Part shown: one piece after another, positions 7,518-53,489 of the stretch
How the letters are laid out: each line of letters starts with the position of its first letter
Numbering within the stretch: the first letter of the stretch is position 1
NCBI GenBank assembly: GCA_021463465.1
Contig: JAJTYH010000002.1
Location: 73,799 to 137,798, forward strand
Source of the DNA: a bacterium
GTDB lineage: Bacteria > Patescibacteriota > Dojkabacteria > SC72
Length of the DNA stretch: 64,000 nt
Direction of reading: 5' to 3'
Program-made: the position numbers and the translations under genes
The notes under the pieces: model-generated
Seen by the model: the letters and a program-made list of their open reading frames with translations, nothing else
Told to the model about the DNA's origin: nothing
Database searches by the model: none

Positions 7518-7556
7518 TCCCTTAACAGTTACAGTTGGTTTACGCTATAATTATAC

Positions 7557-7710
7557 CGCATTACCTAAACCTAGTAATAGGCATGGTGATAAAAATTGAA
7601 TCCACGACGAATAACGCGGCTCTCCGGCCGGTCCATTCGTCGTGGTCTATATCTCGAAAGGGATATGGGGGTTCCGAAAGGAACTCGCTGGTTCGGAGGG
7701 CCACTTTTGT
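7557..7710 (+). ncRNA. structured leader/ncRNA, copy 1 (three GNRA-tetraloop hairpins plus 11-bp stem); homolog of 21740..21890 on minus strand
   Basis: Promoter TTAACA(7523-7528)-17nt-TATAAT(7546-7551); hairpins CCTA-GTAA-TAGG, CCACGACGAAT/ATTCGTCGTGG (7602-7612/7635-7645), ATATCTC-GAAA-GGGATAT (7649-7666), GGTTCC-GAAA-GGAACT (7670-7685), tail CGCTGGTTCGGAGGGCCAC; same architecture with compensatory changes in second copy. Confidence 0.6.
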
Positions 7711-7743
7711 TATACCTCCAGAGATAAAATAAATCAGATAAAC

Positions 7744-8448
7744 ATGCAAAAGTATACAGTTACAACTCTAAAAGAGGAGCTAGTAAAAATAATAATTGAA
7801 ACACCGTTACAAGAGGTGTATTGGGAAACAATCGGCTATTCAGAAAGACCTAAACCAGGATCGCTTATCTCAGATTTATTCAAGCTATTAGTAGGTAAAA
7901 AGTCTCTCAGGGAGCAGAAACTTTACAACTTCATTTTCCTTGAACTCATCATTTTAGCCATCTTTGATATCGCAGTCTGGTTTGAGAAAAGAAACCGTGA
8001 CTATCTATTTAACGCAGTTTTTATAGCGATTCTAGTCACCGAAATATCATCGATCATGTCACAAGATCAATTAAGAGGTTCTTTCTTTAAAGGCATCCGT
8101 GAGGCTATTGAATACATATCATTAGGGTTTAACAGCTATAAGCACAACGATCCTATAAATGCGTTTAGCAAACGTCTAGAAAATATACAAAGCGAATCAG
8201 AAGCTTCAGATCAAAAGATAGAAAGTATTCGAAATGGCTTTAAAAACTTATTTCAAACACCCACAACACTTAGTGGAAAAAGTCTTTTGCTAAGCTACCC
8301 TGATTTGGATGCCCACTTCTTTAAATATTATGAGAAAGAACAGTTTGATTTATCAAATGACAGCCCTACAGAGAACCCGATAGGAAAGGGGTTCAATCGT
8401 GATGATCTGAAATTCGCTACAGAAATGCTATTTTATAAGAAGAAATAA
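7744..8448 (+). CDS. membrane protein (2 predicted TM helices); ORF-track start 7642 lies inside the upstream structured RNA, ATG 7744 preferred
   Basis: Hydrophobic segments LYNFIFLELIILAIFDIAVWF and LFNAVFIAILVTEISSIM; ATG at 7744 directly after RNA element. Confidence 0.5.
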   Translation: MQKYTVTTLKEELVKIIIETPLQEVYWETIGYSERPKPGSLISDLFKLLVGKKSLREQKLYNFIFLELIILAIFDIAVWFEKRNRDYLFNAVFIAILVTEISSIMSQDQLRGSFFKGIREAIEYISLGFNSYKHNDPINAFSKRLENIQSESEASDQKIESIRNGFKNLFQTPTTLSGKSLLLSYPDLDAHFFKYYEKEQFDLSNDSPTENPIGKGFNRDDLKFATEMLFYKKK

Positions 8449-8464
8449 ATCGTATTACAAAAGG

Positions 8465-9403
8465 ATGAAATCAAAAATAGTGGGTTCAATATTTGCTCAC
8501 GCCAGTGGAGATTACCTTGGTATGCCCGTTGAATTTGCTTCTACACCCGCACAGGTACAGGATTTCTTCGGTAGTGAAGGCATAAGACCTATTGATACTA
8601 ATAGCAGGGGAACGAAACCAGCTGGTTACTATACTGATGACACGGCTATGATGCTGTGTTTAGCCCAGAGTCTCATAGACAAAGGATTCGATACCTTAGA
8701 TCAATTCCAGAAATATAAGAAGTGGGCTTTTGAAGGATATATGTCTGCTGATGGAAAGACTTCTTTTGGAATAGGACAGAATACATTAAGGAAACTAATG
8801 TGGCAGAAGCCGGAAGAAATACCTACAGCAATTCATAGCAACGATAAAGAAGGTGGAAACGGAGCATTAATGAGATGCCTTCCTATTGGACTCATATACC
8901 ATAACAATACTGATGATGTAGTTGATAAGAGTATAAAATCAGCACTTGTTACGCACAACAATACCATTGCGGTTTGGACTACAGTTGTATTCAATACACT
9001 CATAACATACTGCCTGCATAATATTGAGAAAGAGGGGTTTGTATCAAAACTCGCAACAGAGCCCTACTATAAAAATATCCCCGCTGAAATAAAGAAAGTG
9101 CTGGATAGACTAGGTAATCTAAAAACGGAGGAGCTCAAGACCAGTGGATACTCACTTAATACCTTGGAGGTCGCTCTGCATTCATTTTTCAGCTCTGATA
9201 GTCTGGAAGCTGCTATCAAGGCATCAATTGGTTTTGGAGGCGATACAGATACTCAAGGGGCGGTCACAGGAGGTCTTGCTGGAGCATATTACGGTTATGA
9301 AGCAATTCCAAAAGAATGGACAGCTCACTTATTAAATAAAGAATTGATGCAAGAGATCTCAGATAAGATAGCCTCGATATCACTTAGCACACCTAATACA
9401 TAG
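8465..9403 (+). CDS. ADP-ribosylglycohydrolase family protein
   Basis: N-terminal GSIFAHASGDYLGMPVEF and GYYTDDTAMMLCLAQSL motifs characteristic of ARH/DraG family; 312 aa. Confidence 0.75.
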   Translation: MKSKIVGSIFAHASGDYLGMPVEFASTPAQVQDFFGSEGIRPIDTNSRGTKPAGYYTDDTAMMLCLAQSLIDKGFDTLDQFQKYKKWAFEGYMSADGKTSFGIGQNTLRKLMWQKPEEIPTAIHSNDKEGGNGALMRCLPIGLIYHNNTDDVVDKSIKSALVTHNNTIAVWTTVVFNTLITYCLHNIEKEGFVSKLATEPYYKNIPAEIKKVLDRLGNLKTEELKTSGYSLNTLEVALHSFFSSDSLEAAIKASIGFGGDTDTQGAVTGGLAGAYYGYEAIPKEWTAHLLNKELMQEISDKIASISLSTPNT

Positions 9404-17107: not shown

Positions 17108-17719
17108 TTATTCGAAAATATCCATTATGTTAATTGTATCTTTCTCAAGCCTTTCAAATTTAATTACCCCAACAGTCCTCCTATTCTCATCATTAGTGTA
17201 ATGTCCTTCAAGCAGGTTGGAGTTTATTACTTTCAAATAACTAAAACCTTCATGCATTCCACCGTTTGTACTATTTTGTAAAGTGCTATCTTTCGGCCTA
17301 TTGATGTATTTGTACAAAAGATACCATCTACCATTTTGTTCTTGTTCCATTAAGCAAATAGTGCTATCTGAACACGAATTAGCAAACTCAGTTGAAACAA
17401 ATAATTTTAAATAATTCTGCTTGATTTCAGCAACACCTTCATACTCATTGGCACGATTATCATAGGAAGATTTCACAGTAACTTTCCATTTTCCCGAAAG
17501 ACAGGGTTTAAATCTCAGACCAAAAACATATGCAATCGTTGTAACAAACTTCGGGTAATCCAACTTCCAAAGAAAATTATTCCACAACGCAACCAGGAAG
17601 AGAATAATTACAACAACAGCCGAAGTAGGAATAACCTTATTGTCGAAAAATGAATTCACACCATGAATAATTAGGGTAATTGTAATCAAAACAGATATAG
17701 TTTTCTTATAATCATTCAT
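17108..17719 (-). CDS. 2-TM membrane effector-like protein (SLATT/Cap15-like architecture)
   Basis: Two N-terminal TM helices (VLITITLIIHGV..., AVVVIILFLVALW) followed by ~140-aa soluble domain; 6 nt downstream of nucleotidyltransferase gene. Confidence 0.5.
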   Translation of the reverse strand: MNDYKKTISVLITITLIIHGVNSFFDNKVIPTSAVVVIILFLVALWNNFLWKLDYPKFVTTIAYVFGLRFKPCLSGKWKVTVKSSYDNRANEYEGVAEIKQNYLKLFVSTEFANSCSDSTICLMEQEQNGRWYLLYKYINRPKDSTLQNSTNGGMHEGFSYLKVINSNLLEGHYTNDENRRTVGVIKFERLEKDTINIMDIFE

Positions 17720-20968: not shown

Positions 20969-21700
20969 TTATTTAGAGAGATATTTTGCTTCAATTTTCA
21001 AAACATTTGCTGTATCCAAAAGCCCAGCAGTAATATTCAAAGTGCTATCACTAATCATTTCATTATATGTTTTAATGTTTTCCAATCTCCTTGATGGCGT
21101 ATCTCCATCTAAAAAGGATTTAGCCTCTCTGGACCAGCCTCTCCAGTTACTGCAATAGCCTATGACTTCACTATTCAATTCATCAAACTTTATATAAGCG
21201 TTTTGAGGCCACTTGTCAGTGGAAAAAGCATATTTATTGAAGTCGCACTCCCTTGCATAATCCTCGATATCAAAGACTGTTGCATAAACACTTACACCAG
21301 ATTTCCCACTCACTGACGCTTGATAATTTTTGTAATAGGTATCAAAGTTCTTAGTACCGGTTGTTACATTTTTGTAATATTTCAAGTAATCATTTTGAAT
21401 TTGTTTCTGTTCTTCAACAGTTAGTTGTTCCCACTGGGGTCTATTTATCTTCTTTGCGGAGTCTGAATTCGTCCCGCTGAAACCTGAAATTAATCCTGAA
21501 ATACCTGCAACTGCAAACATAATAACAAAGACTAAAGCGATAAGTGACATACATCCACTGTTCTTTTTAGGTTTTTCGTTATTTACCGTTGAAGGGGATG
21601 AGGAGAGAATACTTTTCTTCTCTTTATCAAACTCTTCCTGAGTAATCACTTTGTCTTTGAGGAGTTTTGAAAGCTTTTCAAGCTGTTCGGCCTTTTCCAT
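20969..21700 (-). CDS. SHOCT-domain membrane protein
   Basis: N-terminal SKLLKDKVITQEEFDKEKKSIL (SHOCT-like), single TM helix (CMSLIALVFVIMFAVAGISGLI), extracytoplasmic domain; preceded by structured RNA copy 2. Confidence 0.5.
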   Translation of the reverse strand: MEKAEQLEKLSKLLKDKVITQEEFDKEKKSILSSSPSTVNNEKPKKNSGCMSLIALVFVIMFAVAGISGLISGFSGTNSDSAKKINRPQWEQLTVEEQKQIQNDYLKYYKNVTTGTKNFDTYYKNYQASVSGKSGVSVYATVFDIEDYARECDFNKYAFSTDKWPQNAYIKFDELNSEVIGYCSNWRGWSREAKSFLDGDTPSRRLENIKTYNEMISDSTLNITAGLLDTANVLKIEAKYLSK

Positions 21701-21739
21701 AACTAGATTCTAATAATTTATCTAGCTTGGTCTAAAAGG

Positions 21740-21890
21740 CAAAGGTGGCCTCCCGAACCAAGCGATAAGTCCTTTCGAACCTATCCTGCACTCTTTCGAG
21801 TACAGACCCAAAGCACGAGTGCCGGTCAGGAGACCGCTTTTACGTGCTTTGGGTTTTATATCCATGCCTATTTCTAGGTTTAGGAGTTGT
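21740..21890 (-). ncRNA. structured leader/ncRNA, copy 2 (homolog of 7557..7710)
   Basis: On minus strand: TGTATAAT promoter (plus 21896-21901), CCTA-GAAA-TAGG, 11-bp stem CCCAAAGCACG/CGTGCTTTGGG (plus 21807-21817/21843-21853), GTACTC-GAAA-GAGTGC, AGGTTC-GAAA-GGACTT, tail CGCTTGGTTCGGGAGGCCAC; compensatory base changes relative to copy 1. Confidence 0.6.
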
Positions 21891-21972
21891 GGTCAATTAT
21901 ACAATTTTGAAATCGTATTGCATATATATTGGACGTATAAACATTGTACTCAAAACATGTTAATATTAGCTT

Positions 21973-22858: not shown

Positions 22859-24558
22859 TATATCTCCACGGATGAGTGAATACATTGAATCCTACATTCG
22901 AACTCATCAAAGAGAATCAATTGATGTAACAAAAGAAGAGAAAAAGTATGTTTTATATTTAAGAAAGTCCTCGAAAGATAAAGACAAACAGGTGCAATCA
23001 ATTAAGGACCAGCGAAAAGATTGTTACCAATACGCAAAAAGAGAAAAGATAAGGATTGAAAGAATATTTGAAGAAAGCCAATCAGCAATGATTTCTGAAG
23101 GGAGGGATGCTTTTAAAGAAATGATGGAAGAGATAAAGAAAGGAACATACAACTCAATTCTAGCTTGGCACCCTGATAGGCTGGCGAGGAATATGAAGGA
23201 TGCTGGTGAGATTATAGATTTATTAGATAAAAAGATTCTCATGGATTTAAAATTCCCTTCGTACACTTTCGTAAATAACGGTAGTGGTAAGTTGGCATTA
23301 GGAGTGCAATTTGTCTTGGCAAAAAATTACTCTGACAATCTATCAGTCGTAACTAAAAGAGGTAATCATAAAAGGTTTGAAGATGGCGAGGGAATAAGAA
23401 GCAATAAATACGGATATAAATTAGTTCGAGTTGGTGACGCAAAAAAAATATAGACCAGATGGAAAGAACTTTGAACTTATTCAAAAAGGATTTCAAATGG
23501 CTTTAAACGGGCGACCTGTTGCGGAAATTGCCGACTTCATAAATCGAGAGGGGCTAACCTTAGAAGTAAACGTTAAAAAAGACAATGAAAAGAAAGGCCT
23601 AAAAAAGGGTAAACAGCACATTCATATTACATTACTTCCCCAATCTGTATCTAAATTACTTGCGAATCCCTTCTTTGCCGGAATCCATGTAGTAGGGGCT
23701 AAGGTCTACGATTATAGAGTACTTGATACAGGATTTTTGCCAATCATTTCCGAGGATGACTTTATAAAATTGAGAATTAAACTAGAGTCAAACTCTAACT
23801 TTGTGAAAAGAAGAACGGTAGACAATTCCAGGTTCCTTCCGTTAAAAGAGATGATTACTTGCAATTACTGCAAGGGTCCTATGTATGCTGGAGTAACAGG
23901 TAACGGCAAAGGCAATTATTACCTTCGATACAGATGTGAAACGGAGGACTGTCGGCGAAGAGATAAGGCTTATAAAAAGAAGTACAAACTAAGGGAAAGT
24001 GTACGTGGTGTTCTTATTATTGACTTCGTATTCGAATATTTTAAAAACCTTGATGTGCCAAGGGATTTATACGAGAACTGGGTAACTGAAATAAAGAAAA
24101 TGCGAAAGAAATTCCTTAAAGGCTATTCAACTGAGATGCGAAAAATAGAGTGGCAAATAAAAAAATTAGAAGACGAGATAAGTGTATTGACGCTTACACT
24201 AGCTGATACAACAAAGAAAGCTGTAAGTAGAAGTCTAGAAGGAAAGATTAATGAAAATGCTGATTTAATCGAAGACTTAAGAGATAGAGAACAAGATTTA
24301 AAAAAACAGAGAGATAATTATGAAGTGATTTCTGATAAGACTTTATGGTCGTACGAGAGTTTTACAAACTTCCTGAAAAACGTTGCTAATATAGTAAAAA
24401 GGAAGAGAAGTATGGAACTCCTTGATAAAGTTGTTCGATTGGCCTTTACAAACATTGTGATAGGTAATGGGAAAGTGGTTTCATATAAACTAAAACCGGC
24501 ATTCGAAGCTATCGAAAAACTGCGTCCAATAAACCATGGGGTGGAAGATGGGACTTGA
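22842..24558 (+). CDS. large serine recombinase (island integrase 2), apparent frameshift at A8 tract 23433..23440 (ORFs 22842..23453 + 23431..24558)
   Basis: N-terminal resolvase domain YLRKSSKDKDKQVQSIKDQ (catalytic Ser) in first ORF; recombinase/zinc-ribbon (CNYCKG...C) and coiled-coil in second; 3' end overlaps tRNA-His 3' end. Confidence 0.75.
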
Positions 24559-24614
24559 ACCCACAACCCCCTGTGCCACAGACAGGTGCTCTAACCGATT
24601 GAGCTACATCCACC
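24537..24614 (-). tRNA. tRNA-His (GTG) with encoded G-1 and CCA
   Basis: Cloverleaf: G-1, acceptor GTGGATG/CTTCCAC, anticodon loop CTGTGGC (GUG), T-arm GTGGGTTCAAGTCCCAT, discriminator C + CCA. Confidence 0.85.
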
Positions 24615-51539: not shown

Positions 51540-53489
51540 GTGTATACTAAAAATATGAAACTCAGGATTGATCCAAGATTGCACCAACAATTTCCCACCC
51601 TTAAAGTAGGTGTGTTATGGCTGGAACAAATCACTAACCATAGCAATTCGGATATCTCGTACCAGCTACTATGCCGACTAACCGACTCATTGAAGCGGAC
51701 ATTAAAGGACGCAGAAAATGATAAATGGAGCGAGGCTTTTGCCAAAGCTGGGATTCCATCTGAAATTACTCCTTCGCATCTGACCCTACTTAATCGTTTG
51801 CTTTCTAGTACCAGTAGCTTACCTAATATCTCCAATGCTGTGAATGTGATAAACCGTATCCAACTTATCCACGGTGTACCTATTGGGATCCATGATGCAG
51901 ATAAGACGGAAGGCTCTGTTACAATAGGCGAGAATAGTAAAGAGTTGAATTTTCTCCCACGTGAAAGCCAGGGAGCTGAAGGGGTATCGCCTTCGGAAAT
52001 TGTGTATGCAGACGAGAAGAATGTCATAACCCGTAATTGGGCATACAAACAAGGGCGAAAAACTCTTTTAACCGCTGAAAGCAAGAATGCATTTATTGTA
52101 GTTGACACACTTGATATGTCAGACAGTAAGGTTGAAGAGATTCTTGAAGAGCTCGCTAATAACTTCAATGCTTTTGTTCACCCAACGAAAATTTCAAAGG
52201 GCATTATGAATTCTAAGTATAATGAGATTAACACTGACGATTTAAGTGAAATCAAAAAATTTAAGAGAGTATCAATAAAAGGTTGTAAAACAATAAGTCG
52301 CAACCCTGAAATCATAGACAGGATAGTCGAGAAAGCCGTTGAAGAAGTCTTACCATCAAGAGAGAATCTTAAATCCCTACTTAATTCGGGACGTAGGTTA
52401 AGGGTATACCAAGGATTTGATCCAACAGCACCAACTCTACACATTGGACACACTGTTATGATGCGGAAGCTTGAAGACTTTAGGAAACTAGGACACGAAG
52501 TATTTATGCTTATTGGGGACTTTACTGGTCGAATTGGCGATCCAACTGACAAAGGGGCAGCACGTCGTAAACTCACAGAGAAAGAGGTCTTAGAAAATCT
52601 CAAGCTTTACAAAGAGCAAGCAAGTTCACTTCTAAATATGAACGATAAAGATAATCCTGTGACTGTAGTTTTCAATAATGATTGGTTAGGGCAGCTTAGA
52701 TTTGCAGAAATTGTAGATTTAGCGTCAGAATTTACAGTTCAACAGATGATTAAAAGAGATATGTTTCAAAAGAGATTAGAAAATGACAAACCAATACACC
52801 TACACGAATTTCTATACCCTTTAATGCAGGGCTTTGACTCAGTTGCGCTTAATGTAGATATAGAACTTGGGGGGAGTGATCAACTTTTTAATATGTTAGC
52901 AGGTAGGACTCTTATTGAAAAACTATATAAAAAAGATAAGTTCGTGGTATCAGGTAAACTGCTTACAACGAACGAAGGAGCTAAAATGGGTAAATCAGAA
53001 GGTAACATGATTATGCTCTCTGACTCACCAGAGAATATATTTGGTAAGGTAATGGCATTTTCTGATGAACAAATCTTAGGTGGTTTTGAACTTTTAACTA
53101 ACAGTTCAATAGATAAAGTTAATGAGGTTGAAAGAAAATTGAAACAAGGTAAAAATCCAATGGAATTAAAGAAAGAACTAGCGGAAATAGTGGTTTCAGA
53201 ATTGAAAGGAAACAAAGCGGCAACAAGAGCAAAAGAGTACTTTGAAGGAGTGTTTCAAAAAATGAGTGTCAATGTAGAACTTGAAACAGTCAAAGTATCA
53301 AAATCAGAAATGAATATTTTAGATTTAATGGTTGAAACAGGTTTAAGCAAGAGTAAGTCAGAGGCAAGGCGACTTGTTGAACAGGACTCTGTCGAAGTAA
53401 ATCAGGGAAAAATCGTCAACTGGAAGTCACAAATTAACACAAAAGATATTGTATTAAAGGTTGGGAAAAGAACTCTCCGCATTCTCTAA
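51540..53489 (+). CDS. tyrS: tyrosine--tRNA ligase with ~270-aa N-terminal B3/4-like extension
   Basis: HIGH (PTLHIGH), KMGKS, C-terminal S4 domain (SKSEARRLVEQDSVEVNQGKI); N-terminal NAVNVINRIQLIHGVPIGIHDADK resembles PheT B3/4 domain. Confidence 0.8.
   Translation: MYTKNMKLRIDPRLHQQFPTLKVGVLWLEQITNHSNSDISYQLLCRLTDSLKRTLKDAENDKWSEAFAKAGIPSEITPSHLTLLNRLLSSTSSLPNISNAVNVINRIQLIHGVPIGIHDADKTEGSVTIGENSKELNFLPRESQGAEGVSPSEIVYADEKNVITRNWAYKQGRKTLLTAESKNAFIVVDTLDMSDSKVEEILEELANNFNAFVHPTKISKGIMNSKYNEINTDDLSEIKKFKRVSIKGCKTISRNPEIIDRIVEKAVEEVLPSRENLKSLLNSGRRLRVYQGFDPTAPTLHIGHTVMMRKLEDFRKLGHEVFMLIGDFTGRIGDPTDKGAARRKLTEKEVLENLKLYKEQASSLLNMNDKDNPVTVVFNNDWLGQLRFAEIVDLASEFTVQQMIKRDMFQKRLENDKPIHLHEFLYPLMQGFDSVALNVDIELGGSDQLFNMLAGRTLIEKLYKKDKFVVSGKLLTTNEGAKMGKSEGNMIMLSDSPENIFGKVMAFSDEQILGGFELLTNSSIDKVNEVERKLKQGKNPMELKKELAEIVVSELKGNKAATRAKEYFEGVFQKMSVNVELETVKVSKSEMNILDLMVETGLSKSKSEARRLVEQDSVEVNQGKIVNWKSQINTKDIVLKVGKRTLRIL

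Follow-up and report, generated by a model that had tools for sequence, protein, structure and literature searches.

The analyzed DNA was a stretch of 64,000 nucleotides from a member of the Dojkabacteria (assembly GCA_021463465.1, contig JAJTYH010000002.1, positions 73,799 to 137,798), referred to below as the window. Positions 1-24613 form a defence/mobile island that is bounded by a tRNA gene (24540-24613), and the right half carries housekeeping genes, namely those for pyruvate kinase (pyk), PBP2, tyrosyl-tRNA synthetase (TyrRS; tyrS), and RecG. When the whole window was scanned with Rfam at the gathering thresholds, four tRNAs and two matches to the LOOT RNA family (RF03000) were found, and nothing else. 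Both LOOT copies are located in the island, copy 1 on the plus strand and copy 2 on the minus strand (Table 1).

A first-pass annotation of the sequence had described copy 1 as a novel structured RNA with a second copy elsewhere in the window. The second copy was indeed present, but the claim of novelty did not survive the covariance-model scan (cmscan) that the annotation had itself proposed. Both copies exceeded the gathering score of RF03000 and matched the model over its full length (positions 1-121 of 121), and therefore the element is not a new RNA class: the two copies are further members of a known orphan family. RF03000 also passed its gathering score in all 16 related loci that were tested against Rfam. 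The annotation had seen no resemblance to T-box, GEMM, SRP, 6S, RNase P, or hammerhead elements. This agreed with the scan, in which no T-box, riboswitch, ribozyme, 6S, SRP, tmRNA, or RNase P family reached its gathering threshold anywhere in the window, but the LOOT family had not been considered in that comparison.

LOOT has reportedly been described solely from metagenomes, with no organism assigned, and Rfam lists it under the type 'Gene; sRNA' (small RNA). The motif originates in a survey of 224 motifs, the main text of which contains no discussion of it (Weinberg et al., 2017; PMC5737381), and the sole other mention found was in the CaCoFold paper, where six helices are noted for the motif. 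In the literature searched, which included the main text of the discovery survey, there was no link of LOOT to bacteria of the candidate phyla radiation (CPR) or to cis-regulation.

The two copies share with the Rfam model a P1 stem with a CCUAAAC/GCAUGG loop, an A-rich junction, a long P2, a GAAA-capped P3, and a GNRA-capped P4, and the P1 internal loop signature CCUAAACC...GGCAUGG was found in both. They represent a divergent subgroup, with a GGUCUUCC-type loop, the tail GGUUCGGGAGGCC, and somewhat longer junctions. In copy 2, P2 is likewise a perfect 11-bp stem, and both P3 and P4 carry a GAAA loop. The predicted minimum free energy (MFE) of copy 1 was -67.3 kcal/mol, compared with -45.7 +/- 4.0 kcal/mol in dinucleotide shuffles (z = -5.4, with none of 200 shuffles as good), and copy 2 deviated further from its shuffled controls (z = -8.8). 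The folding of the region is thus far from random expectation. The stems, the 22-nt loop, and the GNRA hairpins of the first-pass annotation were all located at or near the positions it had given. Its two open reading frames (ORFs) regarded as artefacts, 7535-7732 (+) and 7561-7749 (-), lie wholly over the RNA and are best interpreted in this way. A sigma-70-type promoter was present upstream of copy 1 as claimed, but with a spacer of 18 nt instead of 17, and transcription would start at approximately 7558, 3-4 nt 5' of P1. Similarly, the conserved tail and the ATG at 7744 were both confirmed, but they are separated by 40 nt and not by about 35. For copy 2, the promoter scan returned no full promoter, with a -10 box and no convincing -35 box. 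A weak hairpin of local pairs followed by a T-run was flagged at 7689-7703 as a terminator-type feature, with no counterpart in copy 2.

Table 1. Positions of the two LOOT copies, their structural parts, and selected genes in the window.
Feature	Position	Strand	Remarks
Copy 1 promoter	7522-7551	+	-35 TTAACA 7522-7527, 18-nt spacer, -10 TATAAT 7546-7551; 11/12 matches
LOOT RNA copy 1, Rfam-covered part (P1-P4)	7562-7686	+	RF03000, 59.8 bits (gathering score 46.4), E = 1e-8
Copy 1 P1	7562-7588	+	Outer pairs 7562-7565 with 7585-7588; P1 pairs covary in the family
Copy 1 P1 internal loop	7566-7569 opposite 7582-7584	+	UAAA opposite CAU
Copy 1 P1 inner hairpin	7570-7581	+	CCUA-GUAA-UAGG, from the sequence
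Copy 1 P2	7602-7612 with 7635-7645	+	Perfect 11-bp stem CCACGACGAAU/AUUCGUCGUGG, encloses 22 nt
Copy 1 pseudoknot 5' strand, in P2 apical loop	7618-7631	+	GGCUCUCCGGCCGG; duplex with 7688-7702
Copy 1 P3	7647-7667	+	AUAUCUC-GAAA-GGGAUAU at 7649-7666, GAAA loop 7656-7659
Copy 1 P4	7669-7686	+	GGUUCC-GAAA-GGAACU at 7670-7685, GAAA loop 7676-7679
Copy 1 conserved tail	7686-7704	+	CGCUGGUUCGGAGGGCCAC
Copy 1 pseudoknot 3' strand, in tail	7688-7702	+	CUGGUUCGGAGGGCC; past the end of the Rfam model
Copy 1 U-rich motif	7705-7711	+	UUUUGUU, directly 3' of the pseudoknot strand; loop of the alternative hairpin P5
Copy 1 P5 3' strand	7715-7721	+	CCUCCAG; pairs with GGAGG 7695-7699 plus CU 7688-7689
First gene after copy 1	7744-8448	+	234 aa, without a Pfam family; two transmembrane segments predicted
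Second gene after copy 1	8465-9403	+	ADP-ribosylglycohydrolase, PF03747, E = 4.8e-64
Cap15 CBASS effector	17108-17719	-	
Gene after copy 2	20969-21700	-	243 aa, N-terminal SHOCT-like motif, one transmembrane segment
Copy 2 P5 3' strand	21726-21731	-	ACCAAG; MFE fold; -13.3 kcal/mol
Copy 2 pseudoknot 3' strand	21747-21762	-	CUUGGUUCGGGAGGCC; 5' end CUUGGU doubles as P5 5' strand
LOOT RNA copy 2, Rfam-covered part	21764-21886	-	RF03000, 71.1 bits (gathering score 46.4), E = 2.3e-11
Copy 2 P4	21785-21764	-	MFE fold
Copy 2 P3	21805-21786	-	MFE fold
Copy 2 P2	21853-21843 with 21817-21807	-	MFE fold
Copy 2 pseudoknot 5' strand	21822-21835	-	GGUCUCCUGACCGG; duplex with 21762-21747, -25.4 kcal/mol
Copy 2 -10 box	21896-21901	-	TATAAT, 9 nt 5' of P1

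Relatives of the two copies were retrieved by matching the P1 module as a text pattern, which yielded seven loci on viral contigs and at least 118 loci in a collection of species-representative genomes. A two-sequence MAFFT alignment was out of register as a seed, and a covariance model was instead built from nine seeds of identical architecture in which only P1, P2, and P3 were paired. Among the matches listed, 102 elements were detected at E < 1e-6, and these constitute the family set. The covariance model and the search for homologues that the annotation had called for produced more than 100 homologues with abundant covariation, and its interpretation of the element as a structured RNA was supported. 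P2 was 96.8% paired, with double-sided changes in 10 of its 11 pairs and a stem that is hypervariable in sequence and varies in length. P3 was 98.4% paired, and all eight of its pairs covaried. The P3 loop was GAAA in 101 of the 102 members, and the P4 loop was GNRA in 80. Beyond the receptor-like loop in P1, the A-rich junction, and the GAAA loop, few unpaired nucleotides were strictly conserved.

The Rfam model ends at P4 and pairs the apex of P2 locally. It includes neither a tail pseudoknot nor the U-rich motif, the alternative hairpin P5, or the leader position described below. The tail 3' of the model end is common to both window copies, and an RNAalifold analysis of 73 elements in an unfitted MAFFT alignment paired it with the apical loop of P2, in the 5' half of that loop; compensatory changes were observed in 30 of the 34 predicted pairs. 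For pair counts, a covariance-model alignment built without the loop-tail helix was used, and controls were obtained by sliding the partner by 1-3 columns. The core pseudoknot pairs were approximately 88-91% paired with many double changes, in contrast to 37-44% in the slid controls. For example, individual pairs varied among CG (41), UA (33), and UG (12); among CG (30), GC (25), AU (19), UG (9), and UA (5); or between GC (63) and AU (21). In an alignment-free test, the loop and tail of the same element formed more stable duplexes (-25.7 kcal/mol) than non-cognate combinations (-15.8 kcal/mol; p = 2e-47), and the corresponding duplex of copy 1 had -28.0 kcal/mol. The local apical hairpin of the Rfam model was rejected as the sole partner of the loop strand, as it was 69% paired compared to about 90% for the pseudoknot. 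The pseudoknot between loop and tail is therefore well supported, since covariation, slid controls, the cognate-duplex test, and the weaker pairing of the local hairpin agree. The tail, which the first-pass annotation had noted as conserved, is supported as conserved and functional. One pair of the local hairpin covaried, and in copy 1 the strand at 7618-7631 can alternatively fold as a small hairpin of its own; the local apical hairpin may be a transient alternative. Directly after the pseudoknot 3' strand, the family carries a U-rich motif with the consensus cuUUnUguuu, which RNAalifold paired with A-rich sequence located 5' of the loop strand.

LOOT was found predominantly in CPR bacteria. 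Among the matches listed, at least 69 of the 99 LOOT-positive genome loci carried CPR names, including Saccharibacteria, Parcu- and Paceibacterota, Microgenomates lineages, and Berkel-, Dojka-, Uhr-, Magasanik-, and Doudnabacteria, and pattern matches in the genomes of cultured isolates gave no match to the model. Of the other loci, 18 were labelled 'bacterium' alone and 12 had other labels, the latter all on contigs of metagenome-assembled genomes (MAGs). This distribution suggests that LOOT is typical of CPR/Patescibacteria. The window itself fits this range, as its pyruvate kinase was closest, among named homologues, to those of candidate division WS6/Dojkabacteria (52-56% identity).

These other labels were Gammaproteobacteria, Planctomycetia, Sulfotelmatobacter, Methanofastidiosum, Methanoregula, or Bathyarchaeia (loci L014, L026, L035, L036, L048, L049, L057, L078, L092, L096, L100, and L123). 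Some of these contigs are merely 1.6-8 kb long, and they may represent mis-binned or mislabelled CPR DNA. One of them, L036, was the closest relative of copy 1 among the matches listed. In addition, a full LOOT was observed on two IMG/VR contigs classed as viral (L002:5001-5144 and L004:3685-3835), which may be CPR phages or prophages, or host DNA that was misclassified.

LOOT nearly always had a -10 box of its own on the upstream side. In 91 of 95 loci, the longest ORF just downstream had the same orientation as LOOT (p = 2e-22), and the start codon of the downstream gene was located at a median of 31 nt past the element (interquartile range 24-41). Hexamers resembling TATAAT were enriched about five-fold 10-24 nt upstream of P1 among 101 LOOT loci, and the upstream neighbor was divergent in 66 loci, compared with 25 loci in which it was co-directional. 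As a further promoter could not be accommodated within about 31 nt, the downstream gene must be transcribed through LOOT, and, as the upstream neighbors are mostly divergent, the LOOT promoter is the only one available. Judged from this arrangement in the sequence, LOOT must constitute the 5' leader of its downstream gene. At copy 1, the leader precedes the pair of genes for a membrane protein and an ADP-ribosylglycohydrolase that had been named in the first-pass annotation, and the leader reading of that annotation was largely correct.

Across the family, the downstream proteins were diverse. They included seven DNA methylases, at least eight nucleases, a superinfection-immunity protein, peptidoglycan-binding, RDD, and zinc-ribbon proteins, and many small membrane proteins without a known family. 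The island around the two window copies encodes, besides Cap15, Dcm with a MutH-like nuclease, DUF6414 with an AAA+ ATPase, a PIN protein, a Toprim protein, a large serine recombinase, a second C5 methylase, and helix-turn-helix, resolvase, and recombinase genes. In total, three genes of the serine-recombinase type and two C5-methylase pairs resembling restriction-modification systems were present. A phage origin of the window was considered and rejected, as a megablast search of 5-25 kb of it against 50,697 phage records returned nothing, and the window is chromosomal, as seen from tyrS, recG, pyk, and PBP2. The ORF with the tyrosyl-tRNA ligase (51540-53489, +) encodes 649 residues from a GTG, and the TyrRS match covers residues 257-645 only; it probably has an internal true start or an N-terminal extension.

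The tail was also found to have a second potential partner. In many elements, its 5' half is complementary to sequence just 3' of the U-rich motif, and the resulting hairpin, P5, excludes the pseudoknot. An RNAalifold analysis of a MAFFT alignment of the tail and downstream sequence gave no pairs, and the alignment was poor in this region; therefore, alignment-free tests of cognate against non-cognate partners were applied. Cognate P5 duplexes reached -12.7 kcal/mol, compared to -9.9 kcal/mol for non-cognate and -8.5 kcal/mol for shuffled partners. With controls limited to clearly different tails, the difference persisted (Wilcoxon p = 1.6e-5), and stems of at least 7 bp were formed in 43% of the cognate and 19% of the control pairs. 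The 3' strand begins at a fixed offset, 7-10 nt past the pseudoknot core, and P5 was part of the MFE fold in copy 1 as well as in copy 2. P5 is thus moderately supported.

A further repeat was observed in a minority of the family, where the 5' strand of P2 recurs (at least 10 nt) before the start codon of the downstream gene. This was the case for nine of 102 cognate pairs and for none of 502 non-cognate controls. These repeats are exact, 10-15 nt long, and mostly end 0-6 nt before the start codon (22 nt before it in L105). The loci include L022:6097-6115, L056, L099, L088, L026, L105, L021, and L063, and the genes concerned lack a Shine-Dalgarno sequence at that position.

The U-rich motif has the form UUU-N-UG-U across the family, where N was U in 55, G in 18, A in 10, and C in two elements. 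A leader peptide starting from the NUG of this motif was tried and rejected, as ORF length was equal in all three frames (median of eight codons). Both window copies have a TTG inside the motif followed by five further codons and a stop (7707-7729, +; 21742-21722, -), and these six-codon ORFs are probably due to chance.

Several parts of LOOT resemble known RNA systems. The 11-nt GAAA tetraloop receptor (CCUAAG...UAUGG) is found in group I and group II introns and in RNase P. The P1 internal loop, CCUAAA/CAUGG, is identical at nine of 11 positions to the receptor motif, CCUAAG/UAUGG; it occurs in a helix context, and a putative partner is available in the nearly invariant P3 loop. It differs from the receptor in having A for G and C for U, by which the closing G-U becomes an A-C opposition. 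With regard to pseudoknot riboswitches such as ZTP/pfl, fluoride, preQ1-I, and SAM-II, the similarities include a long-range pseudoknot that closes the fold, a predicted exclusive alternative partner of its 3' strand immediately downstream, and a 5' leader site near an ORF. In contrast to these riboswitches, the U-tract of LOOT follows the pseudoknot helix and not the alternative hairpin, which would give an unusual switch polarity; the downstream genes form no coherent regulon, and no Rfam riboswitch was matched. LOOT resembles intrinsic terminators in its succession of A-rich sequence, G+C-rich helix, and U-tract (7-9 nt), whereas the helix strands enclose the P2 3' strand, P3, and P4 in a pseudoknot topology.

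Taken together, the two copies are LOOT family members in the island of a CPR genome, and it is likely that each serves as the 5' leader of the next gene under its own promoter, with two exclusive folds available. As the tail has a possible second partner just downstream, the leader could adopt two mutually exclusive folds, much like a riboswitch expression platform, in which the tail would pair either with the P2 apical loop (the pseudoknot) or with the downstream strand (P5). The P3 GAAA loop probably docks into the receptor-like internal loop of P1. If the pseudoknot formed, its G+C-rich helix, with the A-rich stretch on the 5' side and the U-tract on the 3' side, could act as an intrinsic-terminator-like stop and release a short LOOT RNA. 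If it formed too slowly, the polymerase would read through, and P5 would lock the mRNA in a state without the pseudoknot. Premature termination at the U-tract that depends on the pseudoknot would most likely be the read-out. In about 10% of the family, which does not include the window copies, the 3' strand of P2 could in addition sequester the translation-initiation region through the start-codon repeat, and in these few genes translational strand exchange would come on top of termination.

A number of observations weigh against a switch of this kind. P5 was clear in about half to two-thirds of the loci only and represents a tendency and not a universal feature, and a fixed-column count on the poor MAFFT alignment gave 67% paired compared to 64% in shuffles. 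The window copies have no start-codon repeat of P2, with longest common substrings of 4 and 5 nt. A terminator-type helix with strands approximately 70 nt apart is unusual, and the U-run also pairs with the upstream A-rich stretch. The downstream genes are heterogeneous, unlike those of a classical metabolite riboswitch, and no candidate ligand emerges from them. Furthermore, the retrieval pattern fixes CCUAAACC...GGCAUGG..AAAA, so that these bases are conserved by construction and divergent members are under-sampled. The classification of LOOT in Rfam as an sRNA gene also points in another direction.

That classification corresponds to a trans-acting sRNA, an independent gene that would end at the U-tract past the pseudoknot helix and have no relation to the gene downstream. 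A promoter of its own, a 3' end with a G+C-rich helix followed by a U-run, and the great diversity of downstream genes would all be compatible with such a gene. We consider it improbable, however, since 96% of the elements are co-oriented with the downstream gene, another promoter would not fit before a start codon only about 31 nt away, and the mostly divergent upstream neighbors leave only the LOOT promoter. Moreover, the tail covaries with sequence past the U-run, and the P2 strand is repeated at the start codon, also past the U-run, in nine loci. Another alternative is a constitutive structural 5' untranslated region that senses nothing and either stabilizes the mRNA by blocking 5'-end-dependent RNases or holds genes acquired by horizontal transfer at a fixed level of translation or attenuation. 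A passive stabilizer would need neither two conserved and exclusive partners of the tail nor, as in a subset of the genes, a P2 decoy at the start codon. Such a role is rather unlikely, although it would agree with the leader geometry, the few nucleotides between the inferred transcription start site and the element, the very stable fold, and the heterogeneous set of downstream genes, most of which are accessory, defence, or membrane genes.

Processing of the 5' untranslated region by LOOT as a catalytic RNA, self-cleaving or of another kind, appears very improbable. The compact fold, the pseudoknot, and the features of the tetraloop-receptor type would suit a ribozyme, and some bacterial self-cleaving ribozymes also lie near defence or mobile genes; yet no Rfam ribozyme family was matched, the strictly conserved unpaired nucleotides are few, and nothing indicates a cleavage site. 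The probability that the ORFs at 7535-7732 (+) or 7561-7749 (-) are real small genes is close to nil. Both reading frames exist, but on either strand they coincide with an RNA structure that covaries, the pattern of conservation follows base-pair covariation and not codons, no reading frame is conserved in the homologous elements, and P2 is hypervariable in sequence and length.

Neither the Rfam model nor the searched literature contains the pseudoknot and its competing hairpin, the position of LOOT as a leader, the CPR host range, or the link to defence and mobile genes; these findings are new in that respect. Two more copies of a catalogued motif would be ordinary by themselves, while the family-level findings make the function of LOOT testable. 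An orphan RNA without known function or host is now placed in named organisms of the CPR/Patescibacteria, and a testable RNA-switch hypothesis is available for bacteria whose gene regulation is almost unknown. A revision of the Rfam model and of its type annotation is also suggested. More tentatively, LOOT might be a lineage-wide cis-regulatory class of CPR bacteria, in which a receptor-braced pseudoknot switch ahead of horizontally mobile genes, of defence genes for R-M methylases, nucleases, and superinfection immunity, and of envelope genes senses a cellular signal. Action by pseudoknot-dependent attenuation, and in some genes by strand exchange at the translation-initiation region, is an equally speculative part of this proposal. 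If it were true, the filing as an sRNA would be overturned, and LOOT would be the first characteristic riboregulator of CPR bacteria, for which few others are known.

A second, shorter conserved RNA, which shares only the P1 module of LOOT (CCUAAACC-hairpin-GGCAUGG), was observed in Saccharibacteria MAGs and IMG/VR contigs, and it matched no Rfam family. After the P1 module, it has an CGCAAAACCAUC...GAUGGUUUUGCG stem around two tetraloop hairpins, followed by a U-run, and it was located at L004:463-575 (+) and L040:1251-1360 (+), as well as in L007, L008, L110, and L122. In L004 and L040, a true LOOT is found 3-4 kb downstream of the shorter RNA, and its P2 strand has CCAUCCAAG in common with it.

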